A DNA stretch of 64,000 nucleotides. Source: an uncultured bacterium (GTDB lineage Bacteria; Patescibacteriota; Minisyncoccia; Phycocordibacterales; PALSA-1337). Below the pieces are notes generated by a model that saw nothing but the letters and a program-made list of their open reading frames with translations, had not been told where the DNA came from and did not search any database. Both the position numbers and the translations under genes were made by a program. Below, one piece after another: positions 1 to 12,298 of the stretch (positions are counted from its first letter, which is position 1; every line of letters begins with the position of its first letter). The DNA is taken from NCBI GenBank assembly GCA_963701025.1, contig OY969557.1, positions 106,405-170,404 on the forward strand, in the 5' to 3' direction.

Positions 1-146
1 CGGCATGTTCATCATGATGTCGGCCTGGGGTATCATATATCTGATCTCCAATACGGTAGCGCAGATTTGAAGGACTGAAAATCAGGTAAATAAAAACAGG
101 CGGGGATTGAATCTCCGCCTGTTGCGTTAAGGGATGTTTTAGGCCC

Positions 147-563
147 TTATTTGATTTCGGTGTAGGTGCAGTGCAACGTCGTAGGCTGGGGTTCGTAATT
201 CGGATTGAACTCGAAAGTCAATCCCTCCCCAATGCCGTATTCCGTATGCCCCAGCGACCTTTCCGTCACTTCCGTAGTCGCATTCGTGACGACATGTATC
301 GGAGCGTAGCCCCAATTCACTTCGAGATGATACCCGAATGGAGCCGACAGGTTTGTTGACTCGGTCACCATTACGACGTCCTGGGTGTAGACCATGGGCG
401 GTCGTGTCGTGGCACCACCGTTGTTTTCAGTCGTTTGCGCGGTAGGGCAGAACGTCATGGTGAGCAGGATAATAATGATTCCTACAACACCGAGGATGAG
501 TCTGCTTGGCCGCCACCCGTCTTTTTTTTCGGTTGTGTTTTTTGTTGGTTCGTTCATGGTCAT
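147..563 (-). CDS. hypothetical small membrane-anchored protein
   Basis: ORF of 138 aa with one hydrophobic helix (GVVGIIIILLTMTF). Start overlaps the upstream gene's stop by 4 nt (coupled). No recognisable domain. Confidence 0.35.
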   Translation of the reverse strand: MTMNEPTKNTTEKKDGWRPSRLILGVVGIIIILLTMTFCPTAQTTENNGGATTRPPMVYTQDVVMVTESTNLSAPFGYHLEVNWGYAPIHVVTNATTEVTERSLGHTEYGIGEGLTFEFNPNYEPQPTTLHCTYTEIK

Positions 564-1690
564 TTTCCTTTCCCTGTGATGGCGAATCCGCTGCCAGGAG
601 CGAAGGTGTGTACCCGTTCCGGGATACCCTCGTATTTTTGGATGTTCACGGTTTTTTCGATCAGATCAAGTGCCACCTGTGTGCCCTCGAAGGCCACATT
701 CGGTTTGACATCGCAATCGTCGACCAGTTTTTTGGTTTCTTCCCTAATTAGGCCGAGCCGCGCTTTGGCGTCGAATGTCTTCTGTGATTCGCCGGTGAGG
801 CTGAAGTTGCCCATGATCAGCTTTATTTCAGTCCCCGTTTTTTCTTCCAAGGGGGAAAGGTGTTCGTCACCCCCAAGCAGGTTGTCTATCCACGCTTTGA
901 CCTCCGCTTTGTAGTAGAGGAGCGTTTCATAGGAATTACACCCGGCGATGTCTGACCATCTTGCCTCAACCCATTCCCTGATGGCCACCCGGATTTCTTC
1001 CGGTTCTTTGAATTTGAGCGATCTGTTCAGGCCATCTTCGCGCCAGTTGTATATTATCGTGACTTCCGCAGCGGTTTGGTATCCGTCCTGGGTAGTCGCG
1101 TCCATTTTTGGCTCGTCAGTTCCATTGGTGTTGATGACCTCATGCTTTTGGAAATCAATGGCGATTCCCTGATCGCGTGAGAACCAAGATGTCCAATGGA
1201 ATCCTTTCGGATAGATGATCAATTCCCGGACGACGTAATCCAGATAGAGCTTCGCTTGCAAGCCCTTGACCGTTGTCCAGAGATGGCCGTATAAGCAGAT
1301 GACAGCCACCCAGATAACTGAAAGCGGGATACCCACTCTCGCAACTGGGTTATGTGTCTTGAAACTGATGACGAAGAACATCAGGCAGAACAGGATCACC
1401 GCCGTTAACAGATTGAGCGTAAATGCCGCCCAATCCATGTCGGTTATGTATCTGATCTGTAACGGTTCGTCACCGTGTGCCTTACAGCCTTCGGGCAGGT
1501 CAAACTTCCGTTTTGGCGGTAATTCCAACGGAGCGGGTTTATCGTTTTTACTCCACGCCTCATCAGGAGGCGGGTCGATAAGGCCGAGTTCGGCCAGTTG
1601 AATGTTTTTCATGTCGAGTCCTTTCGTTTCATCATGTAGTGATTGTTTTTTCAAGGCGATATCCTTACTATGGATACCGGCGTTACTCAC
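560..1690 (-). CDS. hypothetical membrane protein (two TM helices, about 230-aa C-terminal domain)
   Basis: ORF of 376 aa with hydrophobic helices AAFTLNLLTAVILFCLMFFVISF and IPLSVIWVAVICLYGHLW. Co-directional and overlapping with 147..563. No family recognised. Confidence 0.45.
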   Translation of the reverse strand: MSNAGIHSKDIALKKQSLHDETKGLDMKNIQLAELGLIDPPPDEAWSKNDKPAPLELPPKRKFDLPEGCKAHGDEPLQIRYITDMDWAAFTLNLLTAVILFCLMFFVISFKTHNPVARVGIPLSVIWVAVICLYGHLWTTVKGLQAKLYLDYVVRELIIYPKGFHWTSWFSRDQGIAIDFQKHEVINTNGTDEPKMDATTQDGYQTAAEVTIIYNWREDGLNRSLKFKEPEEIRVAIREWVEARWSDIAGCNSYETLLYYKAEVKAWIDNLLGGDEHLSPLEEKTGTEIKLIMGNFSLTGESQKTFDAKARLGLIREETKKLVDDCDVKPNVAFEGTQVALDLIEKTVNIQKYEGIPERVHTFAPGSGFAITGKGK

Positions 1691-1826
1691 ACGAGTAGCG
1701 CAACTGTTAGTTTAGTTTGACCTTATCATATTTCGGTATAAAAGTCAATAGCTCCGTATAGGTTCAGTAGCTTCGCACATATAAAAATCCCCAGCCTTTT
1801 CTTGATGGATTGGCTGGGGATGAGTT

Positions 1827-3632: not shown

Positions 3633-3651
3633 GTGCCGGGGAGAGGACTCG
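3633..3651. repeat. 19-bp direct copy of the 3' end of tRNA-Leu(TAG) (gtgccggggagaggactcg); att-like duplication
   Basis: Identical to 3986..4004 inside the tRNA, same orientation, 334 bp away. Read directly from the sequence. Confidence 0.5.
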
Positions 3652-3983
3652 GGTCCTACGGACCCTGTATAGGTCTCGTATTTTCTCGGGTCAAAGACCC
3701 TCGAAAATATACTCGACCTTTTCTCGTCCTCTCCCGCAAACCTCCGGTTTGCTCCGGCACAAATTCGCTTCGCTCATTTGTGTGTCTTTATGACTCCGCT
3801 CGAACCTTTTTTCAAGGACAATAGCCCTTGGCAGTCTCGTTTTAGGGTATCCCCACACCCTTCCCCACATGGGGAGGGGTATTGTTTTGAAATCATCCTT
3901 TGCTCACAAGGATTTTGTCGCCTTTTTGCGTTTCGTGCCACCCCCGACTTCGGTCGGTTTTGCCGCTCACGCGGCTGGTGGAA

Positions 3984-4068
3984 TGGTGCCGGGGAGAGGA
4001 CTCGAACCTCCAAGGATTGCTCCGCGTGGTCCTAAGCCACGTGCGTCTACCAATTTCGCCACCCCGGC
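3984..4068 (-). tRNA. tRNA-Leu (anticodon TAG), type II with long variable arm
   Basis: Reverse complement reads GCCGGGGTGGCGAAATTGGTAGACGCACGTGGCTTAGGACCACGCGGAGCAATCCTTGGAGGTTCGAGTCCTCTCCCCGGCACCA. Acceptor stem GCCGGGG/CCCCGGC, anticodon loop CTTAGGA, T-loop TTCGAGT, CCA encoded. Confidence 0.8.
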
Positions 4069-4113
4069 GATTTTTCCATTTTACACTTTACCTTTTACTA
4101 TTGCTACGTGTAT

Positions 4114-4292
4114 TTTGTGCTGCTTTTTGGACAAAGTTCGAACTTTTTTCTCTGAAAATCCCGACTCGTAGTTGCGTCTCGCTCTGCTCGACGCCAGGAG
4201 AGGGCGGACGGAAGCCTGGGGGTTTGGGGGAAAGGATTCCGTCCGCCCTCACTATTTGTTTTTGGCCGCCGCCGCGCCATTTTTTCGCGCGG
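4114..4292. repeat. repeat A: inverted copy (about 97% identical) of 7999..8178; contains a 14-bp-stem hairpin (4200..4250)
   Basis: Reverse complement of 4114..4292 aligns base by base to 7999..8178 with a few mismatches. The internal hairpin is gagggcggacgga...tccgtccgccctc around a G/C-rich loop. Confidence 0.8.
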
Positions 4293-4315
4293 GTATTAGT
4301 AAAGAAAGAAATTCA

Positions 4316-4390
4316 TGGAACCTTGCGGCTCAAATCCACCATTTGATCCGCAAGCGGTTCTGCCATCTGAGCCGCAAGATTATTCTAGCA
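4316..4390. repeat. about 70-bp direct repeat, copy 1 (ggctcaaatccaccatttgatccgcaa...gccatctga.ccgcaagatt)
   Basis: Near-identical copy at 4602..4676. The pair brackets the S1 element. Confidence 0.7.
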
Positions 4391-4404
4391 TGAGGATTTG
4401 AAAA

Positions 4405-4590
4405 CTCGAAGCGATCCACTTCCGCTTCTAAAGAGTCATGTGACGCGCCCTACGCACATATCCGAACGGCTCCCGCGCTTTTCCTCCGTTGCTTCGCAAC
4501 CGAGGGGCGCGTCCGCCATACAGATATGTGCTACGGGCGAAAAGAAAATGGTGGCGAGAAGCGGAAGTCGACCGCTTCTCGATTGAAGTT
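4405..4590. other. S1: hairpin-bounded structured element (5' hairpin GAAGCG..CGCTTC, 3' hairpin GAGAAGCGG-AAGTCGA-CCGCTTCTC, GC-rich nested stems inside)
   Basis: Same terminal motifs (CCACTTCCGCTTC ... GGTGGnGAGAAGCGGAAGTCGACCGCTTCTCGAT) and same length recur at 8410..8575 upstream of the recombinase gene. Interiors differ but each holds a 9-12-bp internal inverted repeat. Confidence 0.45.
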
Positions 4591-4601
4591 GAAAAGAAAT
4601 T

Positions 4602-4676
4602 TAGAAATCCTTACGGCTCAAATCCACCATTTGATCCGCAAACGGTTTTGCCATCTGATCCGCAAGATTCAGCGCA
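4602..4676. repeat. about 70-bp direct repeat, copy 2
   Basis: Matches 4316..4390. Confidence 0.7.
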
Positions 4677-5322
4677 CAAAAAGATATTTAACCCAGTGCG
4701 AGCCGTCTGTGCGGTTCAATCTTCCTTGTTGGACTAATTTCGACAAATATCTTGTTGCTGTGGCATCCGAACAGTGTAGACGGTCTTGAGCTTGTTCGTT
4801 GGTGATGGATCCTTTTTTTTGTGCTGTCAGCATGATCTTGTCCAATTTTTTCTGTCTGTTTGAACCAAGCTTGGCGTTTGCTTTGGCTAGAAGCGTGCGG
4901 ATGAAGCTGGTCTGGTTCTGTTGCGCCGACGATTGTGTCTGTGGAGATATCGGAGTCGGTGGCGTCGGCGCTGGCACAGGTGCAGATTGCACTGGAATTG
5001 GCTGGACTGGTTCAGGAGTTGGCGGCTCATCGGTTGCAGGAGTTGGTTCAGAAATCGGTTGATCATCAACCGGAGCTTCTGGCTCATTTGAGGCAGAAAT
5101 CGGCTCTTCCGGGGCGTTGCTTTCAGGCTGATTTATAGGTGGATTTTGATCTTCTACAGGAGTTGAACTAGAATCGTTTATAGGCGATTCTGGGGCCGTA
5201 GGAGGGGTATTGGCCACGTCAGAATCTGTTGTTTGGTCAGAAACTGGCTCAACTGGAGCAGGCGATGATTCTGGCGCTTGCACATCTTCAACTGGTTCGC
5301 TTGGAGTATTTTGATCGTCCAT
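4669..5322 (-). CDS. DNA-binding protein: disordered Pro/Glu-rich N-terminal region plus C-terminal winged-helix HTH
   Basis: 217 aa. The N-terminal 140 aa are low-complexity (PEPV, TPPT repeats). The C-terminal 70 aa (..ITNEQAQDRLHCSDATATRYLSKLVQQGRLNRTDG..) has the pattern of wHTH domains such as those at Fic/DeoR termini. Confidence 0.45.
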   Translation of the reverse strand: MDDQNTPSEPVEDVQAPESSPAPVEPVSDQTTDSDVANTPPTAPESPINDSSSTPVEDQNPPINQPESNAPEEPISASNEPEAPVDDQPISEPTPATDEPPTPEPVQPIPVQSAPVPAPTPPTPISPQTQSSAQQNQTSFIRTLLAKANAKLGSNRQKKLDKIMLTAQKKGSITNEQAQDRLHCSDATATRYLSKLVQQGRLNRTDGSHWVKYLFVR

Positions 5323-5393
5323 AGGAATATATTAACATGCTATCCACAGAATTGATTTGACTTACTGGGTTCAATTTGCTAGATTGTTAATGT

Positions 5394-5421
5394 CATTCGC
5401 AGGCCGCCACGCTTCGTGGCG
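5394..5421 (+). terminator. hairpin CCGCCACG-CTTC-GTGGCGG followed by TTTGTATTT (terminator-like, plus orientation)
   Basis: Perfect 8-bp GC-rich stem plus T-rich tract on the plus strand between two minus-strand genes. Orientation is odd, so it could stop an antisense or readthrough transcript. Confidence 0.25.
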
Positions 5422-5429
5422 GTTTGTAT

Positions 5430-6011
5430 TTATACCTCTTTTTGGATTTTCATTTTCCAGCTATCGATATTAATGAGATCGATCTTTCCTTGCTCGTGTT
5501 GCTTCATGACTTCTTTTAACCTCGTTGATAGACGTTTGGTATTTAGTCCAGGCTTCTTGATGCCGGCGTTTGATGAAACGACATAAACTTTCGTGCCTTT
5601 CTCCACAAGTCTTTTGATCAGATAATCGAAATCGCCATCACCTGTAAATATCAAGAATTCTTTATCTGGTCCGGCATATTCCATGGCATCGACGGTCAAA
5701 TCAACATCACAATTAGATTTGTGGTTATAGCCCATACTCACAACCTCTACATTTTCTTTACCGCAAGCAATACATTTTATAGAGATCGTTTTGTCGGGCT
5801 TTTTATAAGAGAAGACCGTCCTCGTTTTTACAATGCAACCGGCTCCTTTCAGAGATTCAAATTCTTTTGCGGTTTCGTCATCTCCTTCGTCGATGCCGGA
5901 GTAGAAAAAAACTTTTTCGCATTTCCATTTCTTCGTGAGGTACGCGTAAAGCTTGTGCCAGTCAATTAGAAAGCCAAGTAGCTTGCGCGTCGTTGACGCC
6001 GTGTTCTGCAC
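5430..6011 (-). CDS. NYN-domain (LabA-like PIN-related) putative ribonuclease with inserted CxxC..C zinc-ribbon
   Basis: 193 aa. An N-terminal motif (LLGFLIDWHKLYAYL) and the C-terminal FLIFTGDGDFDYLIKRLVEKGTKVYVV match the acidic NYN/DUF88 signature. Low-GC gene. Confidence 0.5.
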   Translation of the reverse strand: MQNTASTTRKLLGFLIDWHKLYAYLTKKWKCEKVFFYSGIDEGDDETAKEFESLKGAGCIVKTRTVFSYKKPDKTISIKCIACGKENVEVVSMGYNHKSNCDVDLTVDAMEYAGPDKEFLIFTGDGDFDYLIKRLVEKGTKVYVVSSNAGIKKPGLNTKRLSTRLKEVMKQHEQGKIDLINIDSWKMKIQKEV

Positions 6012-6081
6012 GTCGATGAAAGCATAACGTTTTCTCTGGTTTGCTTGTGGACATGCGTGGTATTATACCACGGCATAGGAC

Positions 6082-6411
6082 CTATTTTCTGTTTAGAATA
6101 TTTGCTATATTTTGTTTTTCCTCCACACTTGCTGTCGTCTTTGAATTTGAGATCAAGGAAGATACAGCGCTTATTTTTGCCGCAGATGTAGGTTGTGATG
6201 ATTGCAACATTGCCGCCACCTCAGTCCGCAATTCGGCTTGAGTTTTTGGTGGAATGGTAGACGCATACCGCATTACGATAAACCAGTAGGCGAGAGCGAT
6301 TAGGATAGCTACGATTACAATAACCAAAACACTCCACAAAAAACGGTGCCGGTGATTGTGTGTCGTTGGTGATTGGGGTATTGGTTGGGGATTTAGTGAG
6401 TAGGTTGGCAT
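6082..6411 (-). CDS. hypothetical single-pass membrane protein
   Basis: 109 aa. His/Pro-rich N-terminus, then TM helice FLWSVLVIVIVAILIALAYWFIV. No family recognised. Confidence 0.35.
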   Translation of the reverse strand: MPTYSLNPQPIPQSPTTHNHRHRFLWSVLVIVIVAILIALAYWFIVMRYASTIPPKTQAELRTEVAAMLQSSQPTSAAKISAVSSLISNSKTTASVEEKQNIANILNRK

Positions 6412-6418
6412 AAATCAA

Positions 6419-6676
6419 TTATTGGACAGTTAGACTAGGCGAACATGCGACTATACCACTCACTGTTGAACCATTTGATGTCGAAGTTACCTTAAAGGAG
6501 AGGTTCTTTGTTCCTGTAGTGCTGTAATTTTTAGTAACAGAGGCTGTCGAACCGAGAGAACTCCATGTGTTATTAACAGCAGGGTCATTCCAATAATACG
6601 TATATGTCCCAGCTCCAGCTCCGCCTAAATCATATCCTGTATAAAGAGACCATGTCATATTTGTTCCATGAGTCAC
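6419..6676 (-). CDS. C-terminal fragment (PKD/Ig-like repeat) of the upstream secreted protein, separated by a frameshift
   Basis: The 85-aa ORF (..TYTYYWNDPAVNNTW..GTKNLSFKVTS..GSTVSGIVAC) repeats the TNYTYQWNGTDHGSW..PGTKTMSMNV..SVSC module found at the end of 6630..7721. The two ORFs overlap in different frames at 6630..6676. Confidence 0.35.
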   Translation of the reverse strand: MTHGTNMTWSLYTGYDLGGAGAGTYTYYWNDPAVNNTWSSLGSTASVTKNYSTTGTKNLSFKVTSTSNGSTVSGIVACSPSLTVQ

Positions 6677-7721
6677 AGTTGGTTGAACTCGGATTGCAAG
6701 ACAGGTTTTGTATTGGTGGAAGGGTCACTGCAACGCTTGCCGTGCAAGAGACTGACTTGCTTGCTCCATAGGACAAGACATTCATTGACATTGTTTTTGT
6801 ACCTGGTGTTGTATACGAATAGGTGATGGAATTTTGACTTGTGGATGGACTTGGTAACCAAGATCCGTGATCGGTCCCGTTCCATTGATAAGTATAATTC
6901 GTACTATCTCCACCCGTTGGACTTGTCAGACTACTCCAAACAACAGGCTGATTTATCACTTGTGTAGTATTATCTGGCCCACATGACAGATTACCTATGG
7001 TTGATACGTAACGCCCGACTTTTTGGGTTCCGTCTTTACTGCAATAATATACGGTGTAGGGTTGCCACAAATCTCCCCAAGCGCTCGTCATGAGAAGCAT
7101 ATTCGGGTTTCCTGGATAATAACTACCGGTTCCTAATCCTGAAGGAGAGCATACTTGGCTATCGTCAGAGGCAATATTACTTCTCCAAGGGCATTGTTCT
7201 CCCGATAGACACCACCTGGCAACACCGTTACGACAATATATTTCCATGCTGTCATTGGCGGCACTTGAGCCGTTATCATTCATTTGAGAATTAGGTATAA
7301 CCCACACTAATCCGGACCCTTGGCATTCTGTGGGTGTTTGTGATCCTGGCATCTGCCACCCCGCTGTTCCATTTGTGTCCTGTGCTGTCAAAACAGCCCC
7401 GACTTGCGGACTACCGCTTGCCACAATCAAATTGCCCGTGATACCAAGATTATCAAACAAAGCGCCGCCAATAACATCAAGAGCGGGAATGCTGGTAGTA
7501 AGTTCGGTATTGGTGCCAAAAGAAACTGGTCCCATTTTGTACTGCCACGAGCTTCCGACATTAATCGGTGCAGGAGTATTGCAATTCGGCGGTGTGCAAT
7601 TGGTACCGGTAGGATAACCGGTGCCAGGTGGTGACCATGTTTGCGCCAAAGCTGATAATGCAGTAGCCCCAAGGAGAAATCCTACAACTACGAGCGAGAA
7701 CGATAGAATGCGTTTTTTCAT
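6630..7721 (-). CDS. secreted Cys-rich protein with PKD/Ig-like C-terminal repeat (signal peptide)
   Basis: 363 aa. N-terminus MKKRILSFSLVVVGFLLGATALSALA is a classic signal peptide. Many Cys, Trp and Gly. Probably continues into 6419..6676 through a frameshift. Confidence 0.55.
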   Translation of the reverse strand: MKKRILSFSLVVVGFLLGATALSALAQTWSPPGTGYPTGTNCTPPNCNTPAPINVGSSWQYKMGPVSFGTNTELTTSIPALDVIGGALFDNLGITGNLIVASGSPQVGAVLTAQDTNGTAGWQMPGSQTPTECQGSGLVWVIPNSQMNDNGSSAANDSMEIYCRNGVARWCLSGEQCPWRSNIASDDSQVCSPSGLGTGSYYPGNPNMLLMTSAWGDLWQPYTVYYCSKDGTQKVGRYVSTIGNLSCGPDNTTQVINQPVVWSSLTSPTGGDSTNYTYQWNGTDHGSWLPSPSTSQNSITYSYTTPGTKTMSMNVLSYGASKSVSCTASVAVTLPPIQNLSCNPSSTNCDSWNKYDMVSLYRI

Positions 7722-7998
7722 ACTTTTGTTGATTGCGTTTTTCTAATAATTTCCTAGTGTTGAGATACACAAAGCCCACCACTAGGAAGGCTCGAAAGCC
7801 TCTATACAAGTTTCCCCGTATAACGCAATCAACGCCCTAATGATCGGTTCTCTATGTTGATTGCGATTTTTCACCATGCCGCCGAAGCGGTTTAGGCTAC
7901 TTCTAACTTATTCAGTTGTGAGATTACTATACCATGAAATCTTCCACTTTGTGTCAAATAAGTTATGCACAGAAAATAACTATTTTTCTTTCCCAGCA

Positions 7999-8343
7999 CC
8001 GCGCGAAAAAATGGCGCGGCGGCGGCCAAAAACAAATAGTGAGGGCGGACGGAATCCTTTCCCCCAAACCCCCAGGCTTCCGTCCGCCCTCTCCCAGCGT
8101 CGAGCGGAGCGAGACGCAACTACGAGTCGGGATTTTCGGAGAAAAAAGTTCGAACTTTGTCCAAAAAGCAGCACAAATTCGCGGAAAACTGAAAATCGTC
8201 CGAAAAAGGCGAAATGCAAATACCAAGTGGAGAGCGGGGCGGAATTCCCCCCTGAAACCCCCCTTCCGCCCCGCCCGCATTTTTGTTGGCCGTTTTGGGA
8301 ATTGCGGGAACAAATGCAAACGGCGCACGGGGCAAAAAAACGA
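7999..8343. repeat. repeat B (345 bp): left half is rc of repeat A, right half is rc of repeat C; two hairpins (8041..8091 and 8234..8274)
   Basis: 7999..8178 equals rc(4114..4292) and 8171..8343 equals rc(10025..10194). The two halves overlap on 8 bp (gcacaaat, 8171..8178). Confidence 0.8.
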
Positions 8344-8409
8344 GGGCGCGGTCGCGTGTGGAGAAAAAAGAGAAATATGATTTTCTTTATTGAAAATAAT
8401 ATTTAAGAT

Positions 8410-8575
8410 TCAAAGCGGCCCACTTCCGCTTCAGATGAAATCAGTACGCGGATGTCAGAACAGCTCCGCACGGGAACTCACACCGTCGCCTGAGGCGACC
8501 GTGTGGTGCTCCGCCGTACCGACATTCGCCCGGAGACAGGTGGTGAGAAGCGGAAGTCGACCGCTTCTCGATGAG
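8410..8575. other. S2: second copy of the hairpin-bounded structured element, immediately upstream of the recombinase gene
   Basis: Starts with aagcggcccacttccgcttc and ends with ggtggtgagaagcggaagtcgaccgcttctcgat, as S1 does. Interior contains a 12-bp hairpin cacaccgtcgcc-tga-ggcgaccgtgtg. Confidence 0.45.
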
Positions 8576-8637
8576 AAAAAGTGGAAAAAAGTTATGCACA
8601 TCTATTTGACTTTGCAAAAATTTGGTAAAATATATTC

Positions 8638-10203
8638 ATGAACGAGAAAAAATATTTCATCTACACCAGAAAATCAACAGACACCGAAGACAAGCAGGTG
8701 AGATCACTTGCCGACCAGCTCGCAGAATTACGCGAGCTTGCGAGGAAAGAACAGTTGGAGGTTATAGACATTTTCATCGAAAAACAAACTGCCAAAATAC
8801 CTGGCAGACCTATTTTTGCTGAAATGTTGGAGAGAATTGAGAAAGGCGAGGCCTCCGGCATCCTCGCTTGGCACCCCGACAGACTCGCTCGCAACTCGGT
8901 TGATGGTGGAAAGGTTATTTATCTCGTAGATACCGGCAAAATCACAGACCTTAAATTTCCGACTTTTTGGTTCGATGCTACGCCGCAGGGAAAATTTATG
9001 CTTTCAATTTCATTTGGCCAGAGTAAATATTACGTTGACAATCTATCGGAAAACATAAAGAGAAGTTATCGTCAGAAATTGAAAAATGGACTATGGCCAC
9101 AAAGAGCTCCGGTAGGATACCTTAATGACAAAAAGACCAAGTCCATTGTCATTGATCCTGAAAAAGCTCCATTGATTAAGAAGACATTCGAGGCATACGC
9201 CACAGGCACTTATACCATCTCTAGTCTTCGTAAAACTATAGGCGATCTAGGATTGAAAGGAAACAAAGGCAAAGAACTTGCCATGTCAAATTATGAACAC
9301 ATTTTGAAAAATAACATCTATCACGGACTTCTATATTTCGGAGGTGAATTTTACGAGGGGAAACATGAACCGATTGTTTCGAGGAAACTTTTTGACACTT
9401 GCCAGGAGGTTATGAAAATAAAAAGTAAACCTCAGCATGAAGGCAGATTGAAGCCGTATGTTTATCGAGGACTATTCAAATGTGCGGAATGTGGATGTTG
9501 TCTTACAATAGAAACGCAAAAAGGCCATAACTATTTACGCTGTACAAGACGCAAAGGTCCGTGTTCGCAAAAATATGTTCGCGAGGAAGCAATGACCGAA
9601 ATGATCAAAGAAGAACTTAAAAAAGTTTCTTTGTCCGATGAAGTCGCTGATTGGCTTATTGCCAAAGTCGAAAAGGAAAAGACCGAGGATGGCGATTTAT
9701 CAAAAGATCAGATTGAGAAAGTGAAAAGTGAAATGCTTGCAATCGACGCAAAGTTAGACAAATTGATGACAGCATACTTGGAAAATGCTCTTACGTTGGA
9801 AGAATACCAGTCGGCTAAAAACAAACTCATCACTGAAAAGCAGGTTTTGAAAGACAAACTTGAAGCTTTTGGACGAAACTCGACCAATCGGTTCGAACCG
9901 GTCATAAACTTTCTAAACGACTGTAAACAAGCCAGTATTTTGGCAAACAGCACTGACACAACAAAGATCCGATCTTTTTTCCAAAAAGTCGGTTCGAACC
10001 CGCTCGTCCGCGACCGCGCCCTCATTTTTTCGCCCCGTGCGCCTTTTGCATTTGTTCCCGCAATTCCCAAAACGGCCAACAAAAATGCGGGCGGGGCGGA
10101 AGGGGGGTTTCAGGGGGGAATTCCGCCCCGCTCTCCACTTGGTATTTGCATTTCGCCTTTTTCGGACGATTTTCAGTTTTCCGCGAATTTGTGCGCCCAG
10201 TAG
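8638..10203 (+). CDS. large serine recombinase (resolvase catalytic domain, recombinase domain, zinc-ribbon/coiled-coil)
   Basis: N-terminus IYTRKSTDTEDKQVRSLADQ (catalytic Ser motif), LAWHPDRLARN, a central recombinase domain, Cys cluster CAECGCCL...C..C, and a C-terminal coiled coil. The last 55 aa are read through repeat C into the tRNA-Lys 3' end, so the true stop may be earlier. Confidence 0.85.
   Translation: MNEKKYFIYTRKSTDTEDKQVRSLADQLAELRELARKEQLEVIDIFIEKQTAKIPGRPIFAEMLERIEKGEASGILAWHPDRLARNSVDGGKVIYLVDTGKITDLKFPTFWFDATPQGKFMLSISFGQSKYYVDNLSENIKRSYRQKLKNGLWPQRAPVGYLNDKKTKSIVIDPEKAPLIKKTFEAYATGTYTISSLRKTIGDLGLKGNKGKELAMSNYEHILKNNIYHGLLYFGGEFYEGKHEPIVSRKLFDTCQEVMKIKSKPQHEGRLKPYVYRGLFKCAECGCCLTIETQKGHNYLRCTRRKGPCSQKYVREEAMTEMIKEELKKVSLSDEVADWLIAKVEKEKTEDGDLSKDQIEKVKSEMLAIDAKLDKLMTAYLENALTLEEYQSAKNKLITEKQVLKDKLEAFGRNSTNRFEPVINFLNDCKQASILANSTDTTKIRSFFQKVGSNPLVRDRALIFSPRAPFAFVPAIPKTANKNAGGAEGGFQGGIPPRSPLGICISPFSDDFQFSANLCAQ
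10025..10194. repeat. repeat C: inverted copy of 8171..8343, abutting the tRNA-Lys 3' end
   Basis: Base-by-base alignment to rc of B2. Hairpin gcggggcggaa...ttccgccccgc at about 10090..10130. Its last 8 bp (atttgtgc) are the same 8 bp that open repeat A. Confidence 0.8.
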
Positions 10204-10264
10204 GGATCGAACCTACGACCTTATCCTTAAGAGGGATCTGCTCTACCAGCTGAGCTATGGGCGC
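10192..10264 (-). tRNA. tRNA-Lys (anticodon CTT)
   Basis: Reverse complement GCGCCCATAGCTCAGCTGGTAGAGCAGATCCCTCTTAAGGATAAGGTCGTAGGTTCGATCCCTACTGGGCGCA. D-arm GCTC/GAGC, anticodon loop CTCTTAA, T-loop TTCGATC. CCA not encoded. Confidence 0.75.
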
Positions 10265-10321
10265 GTAGCATGAATCTACCAGATTATTGCGCAAATCTCA
10301 ATCGTGTGTAATACTATCGCC

Positions 10322-10546
10322 ATGGTAAATCGCATGCGCGCAACGCGGTCGCACCGCAACAATAGGCGCTCTCACCACGCCCTCGATGCGGCGCGGGTGT
10401 CGAAGTGCGGCAACTGCGGCGCGGCGCACAAGAGCCACGCCATCTGCATGTCCTGCGGATGGTACAATGGCCGCAAGGTCCTTGACCTCGCCGGCAAGAT
10501 AGCTGCCAAGGCCGAAAGGGCAAAGAAGGCGGCTAGTAAGAATTAG
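10322..10546 (+). CDS. rpmF: 50S ribosomal protein L32
   Basis: RSHRNNRRSHHAL followed by a Cys4 zinc ribbon (CGNCG...C.SCGWYNGRKV) is the L32 signature. The ORF-track start at 10304 is probably upstream of the true start; starts at 10322 or 10334 are also possible. Confidence 0.7.
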   Translation: MVNRMRATRSHRNNRRSHHALDAARVSKCGNCGAAHKSHAICMSCGWYNGRKVLDLAGKIAAKAERAKKAASKN

Positions 10547-10657
10547 TCTAATTCCTAATTAACCTAATTTCTAAGAAGAGGATTTAGGTCAATTAAAAAT
10601 TAGATCAATTAGAAATTTACAAGGGTTAGTTGTCATATCAAATGTTCTTTAATTAAA

Positions 10658-11494
10658 ATGGCCAATAGGCACTTATCACGGTCAGTAGTCCTCCAAGCCC
10701 TCTTCGAGTGGGACTTCCGCGGTCGGCATGACAAGGAGTCGAAAAAGATAGTCGCTCGCGACGCCAAAGAATTCGCCCCGGGAGTGAGCGACGTATCGTT
10801 CATGGAGGAGCTGATGAAAGGCATCCTCGGTAAAAAAGGCGAATTGGACGACATCATCGCCAAAGCCGCCCCGGAATGGCCGATAGACAAGATATCGCCG
10901 GTAGACAGGAACGTTCTGCGCATCGGCCTATACGAGCTCTTATTCTCCGACAGGGAAGAAGTACCGGCCAAGGTGGCCATCAACGAGGCTATCGAGCTGG
11001 CCAAGACCTTTGGCGGCGACACCAGCGGCAGGTTCGTCAACGGCGTCCTAGGCGCGGTCTATAAAGAGCTCGGCGAGCCAGGCAAGGATGCCCGGCCGGT
11101 CAAGAAAAAGAAAGCCGAAGTAGCCTACGAGGACATGCCCATACAGCATTTGGGCGGCGCGGTCGTCTATTCCCGGGACGGAACGGACGTCTACATGGCT
11201 TTCGTCCACGACATATTCGGGCATTGGACGCTGTCAAAGGGCAAGATACCGCCAGGCGTCGACCCCAAGGACGGCACCGTCGATAAAGTCAAAGAAGAGA
11301 TCGGTCTCGCCATCGAGATCATCGCCGACCTCGGCGAGAACGAGTACATCGCCAACGATCCGGAGATCGGCAAGATTCAGGAAGCAGGTGCATTATTATC
11401 TGGCCGAGTCCGCCTTCGAAAAGCTCGCTTTAGCCAAGAAACCAGGTCTCGACGATGCCAAAGTGGTTCAAACTCGCCGATATCCTTGAATTGA
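10658..11494 (+). CDS. nusB: NusB antitermination factor fused to a C-terminal NUDIX-like domain (apparent frameshift in the last 35 codons)
   Basis: The first 140 aa are NusB (VVLQALFEWDF, FVNGVLGAV). After a basic linker comes a NUDIX-like GHWTLSKGKIPPGVDPKDGTVDKVKEEIGL box. Near 11385 the +1 frame gives a NUDIX-like C-terminus (..QVHYYLAESAFEKLALAKKPGLDDAKVVQTRRYP*), which suggests a 1-nt indel. Confidence 0.7.
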   Translation: MANRHLSRSVVLQALFEWDFRGRHDKESKKIVARDAKEFAPGVSDVSFMEELMKGILGKKGELDDIIAKAAPEWPIDKISPVDRNVLRIGLYELLFSDREEVPAKVAINEAIELAKTFGGDTSGRFVNGVLGAVYKELGEPGKDARPVKKKKAEVAYEDMPIQHLGGAVVYSRDGTDVYMAFVHDIFGHWTLSKGKIPPGVDPKDGTVDKVKEEIGLAIEIIADLGENEYIANDPEIGKIQEAGALLSGRVRLRKARFSQETRSRRCQSGSNSPISLN

Positions 11495-11599
11495 ATTTTT
11501 ACAATGATATCTTGCCTATAGTGGCAAAAGCAGTCACCATTGTGAGTGAAGAGAAGAATTCGTAGCATTCGGACACATTTGCAGATTCGTATTATATCT

Positions 11600-12298
11600 A
11601 TGAAAATAAACTTCGAATCACTAGCGGAGAAATTGAACGTCACTTTCAGCGACATATCCCTTTTGCGCACAGCCTGCACCCACCGCTCATATCTGAATGA
11701 GAATCGTGGCTCTGGCATGGAGCACAACGAGCGCCTGGAATTCCTCGGCGACGCGGTCCTTGAGCTCGTCGTCACAAGCTTCTTATTCAGAAAGTATCCG
11801 AGTAAAGCGGAGGGCGAGTTGACCGCCTTCCGGTCAGCCATAGTAAACACGGTAAGCCTATCCAAAGTCGGCGAGAAGATAGGCCTCAACGATTACATGC
11901 TCCTATCCAAAGGCGAGACCAAAGATACCGGCCGGGCCCGTTCCATCATCGTGGCCAATGCAGTCGAGGCCGTCATCGGCGCCATTTACATGGACGGCGG
12001 CTACAACCCGGCGGCCAATTTCATCTCCGAGCATATACTGGAGACCATAGACATAGACGAGATCGTCAAGAACAAATCTTGGATAGACGCCAAGAGCAGG
12101 TTCCAGGAGAAAGCCCAGGAGAAGAGCGGGCTCACGCCTACCTACAAGACCCTGAAAGAGACCGGCCCAGACCACGACAAGCAGTTCACTCTAGGCGTCT
12201 TCATCGGCGACGTGCAGATAGCCTCTGGCACCGGATTGTCGAAGCAGGAAGCCGAGCAGAGAGCGGCGGAGAAAGCGCTGGAAGCGAAGGGGTGGTAA
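11600..12298 (+). CDS. rnc: ribonuclease III
   Basis: ERLEFLGDAVLELVV signature and a C-terminal dsRBD (KQEAEQRAAEKALE). The ORF-track start at 11546 is upstream; ATG at 11600 (MKINFESLAEKL) is the likely start. Confidence 0.85.
   Translation: MKINFESLAEKLNVTFSDISLLRTACTHRSYLNENRGSGMEHNERLEFLGDAVLELVVTSFLFRKYPSKAEGELTAFRSAIVNTVSLSKVGEKIGLNDYMLLSKGETKDTGRARSIIVANAVEAVIGAIYMDGGYNPAANFISEHILETIDIDEIVKNKSWIDAKSRFQEKAQEKSGLTPTYKTLKETGPDHDKQFTLGVFIGDVQIASGTGLSKQEAEQRAAEKALEAKGW

Follow-up and report, generated by a model that had tools for sequence, protein, structure and literature searches.

Why should a small genomic island between two tRNA genes carry three related repeats, one of them inverted and placed between the island's cargo genes and a large serine recombinase? 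The question is raised by a 64,000-nucleotide stretch of DNA (the window; contig OY969557.1, positions 106,405 to 170,404) from an uncultured bacterium of the Patescibacteriota lineage PALSA-1337, in which the repeats, here called A, B, and C, delimit and divide the interval 4114-10194. We conclude that this interval is an integrated serine-recombinase element at a tRNA-Lys gene, with A, B, and C as its attL, an inverted but intact attP, and its attR. The fuller account that we regard as probable is that of a mobile element whose attP lies within its own recombinase gene, whose enzyme loses a conserved C-terminal tail on insertion, and whose cargo and recombinase segments can both be flipped.

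A repeat search of the window recovered two inverted pairs, one of 179 nt (4114-4292 and 7999-8177) and one of 186 nt (8171-8356 and 10009-10194), each at 98% identity. The first-pass annotation of this DNA had described A and C as the reverse complements of the left and right halves of B, and both this relationship and the three copies themselves are real and exceed chance, but it started C at 10025 and ended B at 8343, and the true repeat extends 16 and 13 nt further inward, respectively. The halves of B overlap by 7 bp (8171-8177), reading GCACAAA or, on the opposite strand, TTTGTGC, and the same bases form the outer end of A and the tRNA-Lys-side end of C. An 8-bp core, atttgtgc, had been proposed for all three copies; B and C keep all eight bases, but A reads TTTTGTGC at that position, and because the eighth base differs the shared core is 7 bp. 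A differs from B at four positions and C from B at three. On either side of the core lie two arms, which we call P (in A and B) and Q (in B and C), and no third copy of either occurs within the window, where the best other BLAST matches are 12-16 nt long. The borders agree with the earlier description, tRNA-Leu lying 45 nt from A and C covering the last 3-4 nt of tRNA-Lys, and the GC content is 41-45% in the island and 52-54% in its surroundings.

The arms were also expected to contain hairpins with stems of 11-14 bp. A consensus terminator scan missed them because their loops exceed the limit of the scan; the arms were folded directly instead, and the stems proved to be 14 bp long in P and 11 bp long in Q, closing loops rich in G or in C. 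The P-arm hairpin with its T-run looks like a terminator for a full-length recombinase gene. On the minus strand of C, which is the tRNA-Lys strand, the Q hairpin is followed by a U-run and looks like a replacement terminator for the tRNA.

Written as arms, A is X-core-P, where X is the spacer next to tRNA-Leu, C is Q-core-tRNA, and the minus strand of B is Q-core-P; that is, hybrid attL and attR sites share a short core with an intact attP. This topology, put forward at first pass, holds family-wide and fits the half-site rule of serine integrases, whose zinc-ribbon-domain motif lies 5 bp further out in attP than in attB (Rutherford et al., PMC3783163). The start of the P arm is conserved (TTGGACRAAGTTCGAA), and TTCGAA lies at +18 from the core in P and at +13 in the tRNA T-arm in 24 of the 42 loci compared; five more loci (four scored as -6, plus L023) also have it at +18 in P, where a chance match closer to the core had hidden it from the search pattern. 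With this 5-bp outward shift, B therefore fits the attP rule of large serine integrases, in a test that covers the P/tRNA half, the X half of attB being not conserved.

The enzyme has the organization of a large serine recombinase, with a catalytic domain, a recombinase domain, and a zinc ribbon with an inserted coiled coil (PF00239, 4.7e-19; PF07508, 2.3e-13; PF13408, 1.2e-7), and its matches in the Protein Data Bank (PDB) include the SPbeta and A118 integrases. At 521-535 aa, with zinc ribbon and coiled coil and beside repeats of 179-186 nt, it is not of the Hin/Gin type, in which a small serine recombinase with a C-terminal helix-turn-helix acts on 26-bp sites together with an enhancer. The window protein is identical to database protein P0126. 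Its known domains run to residue ~454, and the last ~65 residues come from repeat C: the open reading frame (ORF) traverses Q and the core and ends two codons inside the antisense strand of tRNA-Lys, the protein finishing ...SANLCAQ. In every one of the seven Q-arm families, which are mutually unalignable, no stop interrupts that frame in Q or in the core (106 of 108 loci), and the other five frames of the Q arms hold 4-18 stops. A shuffle null gives a joint probability of ~3e-7 for the open Q frame.

Where P follows Q and the core, the frame runs on for 16-19 codons and ends in a motif common to all clades, C(L/V)LD(K/E)VR.(Y/F)F.(Q/E)NP.. and a stop. The window's version of this tail, CFLDKVRTFFSENPDS plus stop, stands at 4121-4171 and again, joined to Q, on the minus strand of B, which holds a complete spare recombinase 3' end (ORF 8335 to 8120, ...SANLC followed directly by the tail). 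The full-length form of the protein is 535 aa and ends ...SANLCCFLDKVRTFFSENPDS. Mean entropy by codon position in the tail is 0.75/0.67/1.11, with 0.23/0.40/1.93 for the proline codon, and the third-position periodicity is gone past the stop; the only A/B mismatch within the tail is synonymous. The tail is present in at least 22 of the 120 top protein-cluster representatives and in two of the eight members of the 90%-identity cluster of P0126. We conclude, beyond anything in the first-pass annotation, that the repeats are the 3' end of the recombinase gene and that attP lies inside its ORF. As in the Mx8 type of integrase, the crossover falls within the coding sequence and integration alters the C-terminus; insertion therefore swaps the conserved tail for AQ and a stop.

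A structural model of a 91%-identical full-length homologue suggests what this part of the protein may look like. The AlphaFold2 prediction, of modest overall confidence (mean pLDDT 63, pTM 0.33), has long helices at residues 334-417, disorder at 452-511, and a helix at 512-531 that spans the core. Q would accordingly encode a disordered linker, with the core inside the predicted C-terminal helix. The Gly/Pro-rich sequence of the linker is dictated by the Q hairpins.

The same architecture recurs widely. Reference genomes, taken as one per species, yielded more than 554 relatives of the recombinase, and metagenome contigs yielded more than 570; nearly all of them carry the label Patescibacteria. 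A protein search returned 7626 homologues at E ≤ 1e-20 among 8000 candidates scored. Architecture was counted in 160 fetched loci, again nearly all Patescibacteria. A Q'/Q inverted repeat (median length 120 nt) brackets the gene in 134 of them, with an identity of at least 95% in 98 and of 100% in 56, and a minus-strand tRNA gene lies within 450 nt downstream of the recombinase match in 119. Most resolved junctions place the Q repeat over the last 4-8 nt of the tRNA. Two copies of P were detected in 31 loci, and P' abuts Q' in every one of these (overlap of 2-14 bp in 30 and of 33 bp in one), with its partner 1.5-8.1 kb away, which is the size range of the cargo. The arrangement X-core-P / cargo / P'-core'-Q' / recombinase / Q-core-tRNA could be written out for the window and 17 other loci. 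The layout is also seen in L023, on a complete 993-kb chromosome, and on contigs of several hundred kilobases.

Targets follow recombinase clades: tRNA-Ser (four isoacceptors) makes up the majority, besides Gln, Lys, Arg, Val, and Ala, and tRNA-Lys is also the target in L001, L166-L173, and L175. Elements differ in how they combine P and Q arm types, each of which moves as a complete module, and some arms have decayed to 74-89% identity. Cargo is unrelated between elements and includes restriction-modification, defense, XRE, and hypothetical genes. A scan of viral contigs for the family gave a single match; these elements are therefore not typical phages. We found no prior description of this architecture in the searchable literature, and a 2025 survey of Patescibacteria genomic islands, which includes the L030 genome, is silent on recombinases, tRNA targets, and repeats; the family is apparently undescribed so far.

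Some loci hold more than one element. Tandem arrays of two or three occur in L067 (1-11582), L118 (1-11400), and L036 (3022-15047). A 191-nt segment whose first ~15 nt match the tRNA-Ser 3' end is found twice, at 100% identity, between the elements of L067, and the two elements of L036 sit at adjacent tRNA-Ser and tRNA-Ala genes. In L061 (9765-11569) and L073 (9763-11567), the recombinase and both Q arms lie between two complete inverted tRNA-Ser genes, without a P arm or cargo and with the same left junction as in L053 and L008. Both attP copies have thus been joined to tRNA genes in nature: this arrangement is the product expected once the internal attP has also recombined with a second tRNA gene, and it looks like a rearrangement of the chromosome brought about by that site.

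If B is a spare gene end, the segments on either side of it should be able to turn over, as the first-pass annotation had suggested for each, and natural isomers of both were found, including some in near-identical elements and host strains. In the reference orientation, a 70-aa XRE-type gene adjoins B in 45 loci and is divergent from the recombinase. L173 and L166 share both element and host (99.6-99.8% identical) but carry the cargo in opposite orientations between their P arms, and the cargo is apparently flipped also in L071, L077, L100, and L123. The recombinase segment is flipped in L163, L174, and L149, where the gene continues into Q-core-P and its product has the full tail. L175 has host DNA 99.95% identical to that of L166, and its tRNA-Lys lies upstream of the gene, the recombinase segment being flipped; the gene there enters an attP-type junction with another P arm and other cargo (9462-11985). 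The internal attP core of L175 is TTTGCGG, as in elements that target tRNA-Ser(cga), and one element may carry two attP copies with different targets. Both segments are flipped in L164 and L165, which come from two samples. Both segment orientations thus occur between samples of the same element and host, and we conclude that, over ecological time, both the cargo segment and the recombinase segment can invert.

Two other ideas about orientation were considered along the way. Strict orientation invariance, with its models of a single-stranded 'dumbbell' intermediate and of splint circularization, was dropped upon finding the flipped isomers. A palindromic crossover dinucleotide (GC or CG) that would abolish site polarity was not established; cores differ between clades.

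The mechanism that we propose would start from a Q-core-P attP inside the 3' end of the recombinase gene, with Q as the linker, the core in the helix, the first ~50 nt of P as the tail, and a terminator beyond. Insertion into tRNA-Lys split this site into A and C, and the split cut the conserved tail off the enzyme, leaving ...SANLCAQ and a stop. B is a second, complete, inverted copy of the gene end between cargo and recombinase; by virtue of this copy, each segment is bracketed by inverted repeats of ~180 bp, and both are therefore flippable. A flip of the recombinase segment joins the gene body to the Q-core-P of B and restores the full-length protein. Such flipping could be the work of the recombinase itself or of RecA, and a circular intermediate presumably exists. 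The tail likely alters the activity or direction of the enzyme, and the common orientation would then likely be a locked, quiescent state.

A more ambitious version, which we put forward tentatively and with some doubt, is that the arrangement of the DNA determines in which direction, or how actively, the recombinase works, the tail helix being present only when the gene reads across an intact attP, whether in the circle or after a flip onto the spare copy. On its long flexible linker, the helix would act as a built-in directionality or activation module; insertion would strip the helix and lock the element, and Q'/Q inversion would re-arm it. If this is true, one protein and one duplicated gene end would make up a self-contained circuit for integration, locking, and re-arming.

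Several points weigh against the account of a tail-swapping, flippable element. The common orientation dominates, the recombinase 3' end facing the tRNA in 119 loci with few exceptions among the 160, and this dominance fits rare RecA-mediated accidents as well as it fits a regulated switch. Short contigs with tailed ORFs could be mis-joins in short-read assembly graphs, and the argument relies on L163, L164/L165, and L175. Conservation of the tail partly overlaps the DNA half-site, the protein-level signal coming mainly from the outer codons (F, N, and P), and the tail has no known function. Neither a circular contig nor an empty tRNA-Lys site was recovered, and there is no evidence of excision for the window copy: none of the 80 metagenome loci checked lay on a contig with terminal overlap, exact look-ups of the window's recombinase and NusB protein gave no match, and a look-up of the neighboring 564-aa protein gave one 6-kb contig that ends before tRNA-Leu and shows no empty site. 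Recombination of attP with attL or attR is not known for canonical large serine integrases. Finally, no directionality factor, the separate factor that reverses the direction of attP x attB catalysis in such integrases, was identified, and none was recognized among the cargo genes.

Much of this could be accommodated by an ordinary integrative element in which B is a passive relic, the flips are RecA accidents, and the open frame and tail carry no regulatory meaning, an explanation that we consider unlikely but that deserves real weight. The prevalence of one orientation would follow naturally from it, as would the decay of some arms and a cargo-flip crossover that is not placeable within the arm because the arms are identical over ~190 nt. 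It does less well with an inverted copy that is kept across clades with unalignable arms and is usually 95-100% identical within the element, with an open frame and a codon-constrained tail conserved in all clades, and with P and Q arm types that move as whole modules.

Far less probable, in our judgment, is a phase-variation switch in which P/P' inversion toggles an operon for secreted or surface proteins and the recombinase is a dedicated invertase. One and the same element, in the same host, does show its cargo in either orientation, and the window's cargo includes a gene for a secreted PKD-like protein with a LOOT RNA ahead of it. Yet the sequence next to the cargo is identical in both orientations out to the core, so that no promoter is gained or lost locally, the cargo itself has nothing in common from one element to another, and the precise tRNA junctions together with the attB/attP rule point to integration.

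We give scant credence to an episome of the 2-micron type, mainly circular and flipping for copy-number amplification, of which the window would be an occasional integrated copy. An excised circle would necessarily hold two inverted Q-core-P copies between two unique segments, and tailed ORFs are common on short contigs; against this stand the lack of a replication gene, even where the cargo is 1.5 kb, the lack of a contig with terminal overlap among the 80 metagenome loci checked, and the lone match in viral contigs. The notion of an assembly chimera of integrated and circular forms, or of a generic dispersed repeat unrelated to the recombinase, both raised at first pass, can be set aside as barely tenable: many contigs do end at the repeats, but the layout recurs in over 100 independent assemblies from a variety of assemblers, among them the complete chromosome of L023, the arms have no further copy in the window, and arm copies differ within an element and are therefore separate physical copies. 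An integrated element with attP in its recombinase gene and two invertible segments thus remains the reading that we prefer. Its features in the window are collected in Table 1.

Table 1. Coordinates of the element, its sites, and its flanking genes within the 64,000-nt window.
Feature	Position	Strand	Evidence or remark
tRNA-Leu(TAG)	3984..4068	-	ARAGORN; Rfam tRNA 55 bits; host gene, attL side
Spacer X, between tRNA-Leu and A	4069-4113		45 nt
Repeat A (attL)	4114..4292	+	core 4114-4120, P arm 4121-4292
Orphan recombinase 3' end in A	4121-4171	+	last 16 codons (CFLDKVRTFFSENPDS) and stop
Conserved half-site in P arm of A	4127-4142	+	TTGGACAAAGTTCGAA
Hairpin, then T-run, in P arm of A	about 4202-4267	+	14-bp stem
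Direct repeats flanking N1	4305-4381 and 4593-4669		77 nt, 88%; downstream of winged-helix gene
N1, rod-shaped structured element	4401..4588	+	~185 nt; paralogue of N2; just inside P arm at A
Winged-helix protein	4669-5322	-	disordered N-terminus
NYN-domain protein	5430-6011	-	
Small membrane protein	6082-6411	-	
85-aa ORF	6419-6676	-	47-nt overlap with secreted-protein ORF
Secreted PKD-like protein	6630-7721	-	363-aa ORF
LOOT RNA (RF03000)	7787..7898	-	leader of secreted-protein gene; 68.4 bits, gathering score 46.4
Repeat B (intact inverted attP)	7999..8356	-	P' 7999-8170, core 8171-8177, Q' 8178-8356
N2, structured element	8405..8577	+	just upstream of recombinase promoter
Promoter-like TTGACT ... 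TGGTAAAAT	8606..8631	+	conserved in clade alignment; 7 nt before ATG
Large serine recombinase, integrated isoform	8638..10203	+	521 aa; Pfam and PDB matches
Repeat C (attR)	10009..10194	+	Q arm 10009-10187, core 10188-10194
tRNA-Lys(CTT)	10191..10264	-	ARAGORN; Rfam; insertion target, 3' end rebuilt by core

The promoter-like sequence of the recombinase ends so close to the start codon as to suggest an mRNA that is leaderless or nearly so. Likewise, a TAAAAT in spacer X is promoter-like with respect to tRNA-Leu.

All cargo genes (4669..7721) lie on the minus strand, and the same gene set is found in L166. The winged-helix gene is always at the A end in the window's clade (L002, L014, L015, and L093). 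In L166, one gene of 396 aa and, after it, another of 106 aa correspond to the 363-aa and 85-aa ORFs of the window, and a frameshift or another gene boundary is possible at 6419-7721. Pfam searches recognized no replication gene in the window's cargo, and the smallest cargos of the family are just 1.5 kb.

The LOOT RNA occupies the same position, at the B-proximal end of the cargo, in L166 (5140-5251, minus strand) and L174 (1874-1986, plus strand), with scores of 68-72 bits. As a hallmark of the family it was rejected, since seven other elements lack it and its occurrence is confined to the lineage of the window; the orphan LOOT motif nevertheless gains a genomic context here. N1 and N2 are absent from Rfam. 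N2 stands upstream of the recombinase in 14 loci of the window's clade (within L001-L022), and the two elements are bounded by near-invariant palindromic boxes, GAAGCGGCCCACTTCCGCTTC and AGAAGCGGAAGTCGACCGCTTCT. In N1/N2, 94% of cells are paired, and compensatory changes occur in 18 pairs, compared with 9.0 ± 1.9 in shuffles, with no clear G-U strand bias. These elements may act as RNA, as a pair of operators, or as a signal in single-stranded DNA.

The neighborhood of the island has features of its own. Left of tRNA-Leu (3633-3660 and 3757-3815) are ~25 nt resembling the tRNA-Leu 3' end, beside a 12-nt core+Q' match (GCACAAATTCGC) and a degenerate core+P start, and these may be relics of an older insertion. 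The closest reference genome, L001, encodes a recombinase 92% identical to that of the window and keeps the L32-NusB-RNase III synteny; in that genome (L001 1900-2132), tRNA-Leu and tRNA-Lys have changed sides relative to the window, and tRNA-Leu is also encoded on the other strand, so that local tRNA order has been rearranged among relatives. Four T4SS-pilin-domain genes, noticed through L082, lie in the host genome a few kilobases from the island (window 1-1800).

Patescibacteria make up a large share of bacterial diversity, and their mobile elements are barely characterized. The family described here is abundant, with thousands of recombinase homologues, and its variable cargo extends to restriction-modification, defense, and surface proteins. 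Its repeats also have a practical consequence: in 71 of the 160 loci, less than 700 nt of sequence lies upstream of the gene before the contig stops, and the repeats account for these frequent breaks, which interrupt assemblies of these genomes but do not create the pattern itself. If activity or direction is governed by the tail, the element would show how directionality can be controlled in nature by a single protein, which bears directly on the engineering of genomes with serine integrases. The combination of a serine integrase that targets tRNA 3' ends, an attP within the ORF, and a stored inverted gene end has not been described in the searchable literature.

The nearest relatives are the large serine integrases, such as those of A118/LI, SPbeta (SprA), phiC31, and Bxb1, which share the three-domain protein, the short identity between attP and attB, the hybrid attL and attR, and the zinc-ribbon-domain motif 5 bp further out in attP. 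Unlike theirs, the target here is the extreme 3' end of a tRNA gene, attP lies in the element's own ORF, and a second, inverted attP is kept in the integrated element. The arms are near-identical repeats of 120-430 bp rather than sites of ~50 bp, and the cargo genes included no recognizable directionality factor.

Inversion systems such as the Hin H-segment, the Gin/G segment of Mu, and the R64 shufflon swap C-termini or carry the recombinase inside the segment. Similarly, the recombinase gene here lies within a segment bounded by inverted repeats, and inversion exchanges the 3' end of an ORF. They differ in that the exchanged tail here is the recombinase's own, the enzyme is a large serine recombinase, and the ~180-bp repeats double as integration sites. 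Tripartite integrative conjugative elements have several att sites per chromosome, leading to inversions; tycheposons are islands driven by a recombinase and directed at tRNA genes; and the 2-micron circle of yeast has two inverted recombination repeats. Tripartite elements in their split state look much like L061 and L073. The present family differs from all three in its size of 3-10 kb, its single recombinase, and its lack of conjugation or replication genes.

Myxophage Mx8 comes closest in the placement of its attachment site, although its Int is a tyrosine recombinase. [quoted passage not shown] The window's element likewise has its attP within the integrase gene, but its enzyme has serine recombinase domains rather than tyrosine chemistry, and Mx8 is not known to have an inverted spare gene end or an inversion that restores the original one.

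A last parallel comes from engineering. In fusions of an integrase with its recombination directionality factor (RDF), a C-terminal module on a long flexible linker is reported to control the direction of recombination (PMC5737554), and a phiC31 preprint describes a 32-residue linker. The natural protein is predicted to have a disordered linker of ~60 residues followed by a conserved helix, an arrangement reminiscent of these constructs. Unlike the fused module, the tail of the Patescibacteria recombinase is only 16-19 residues long and is attached or removed by DNA rearrangement.

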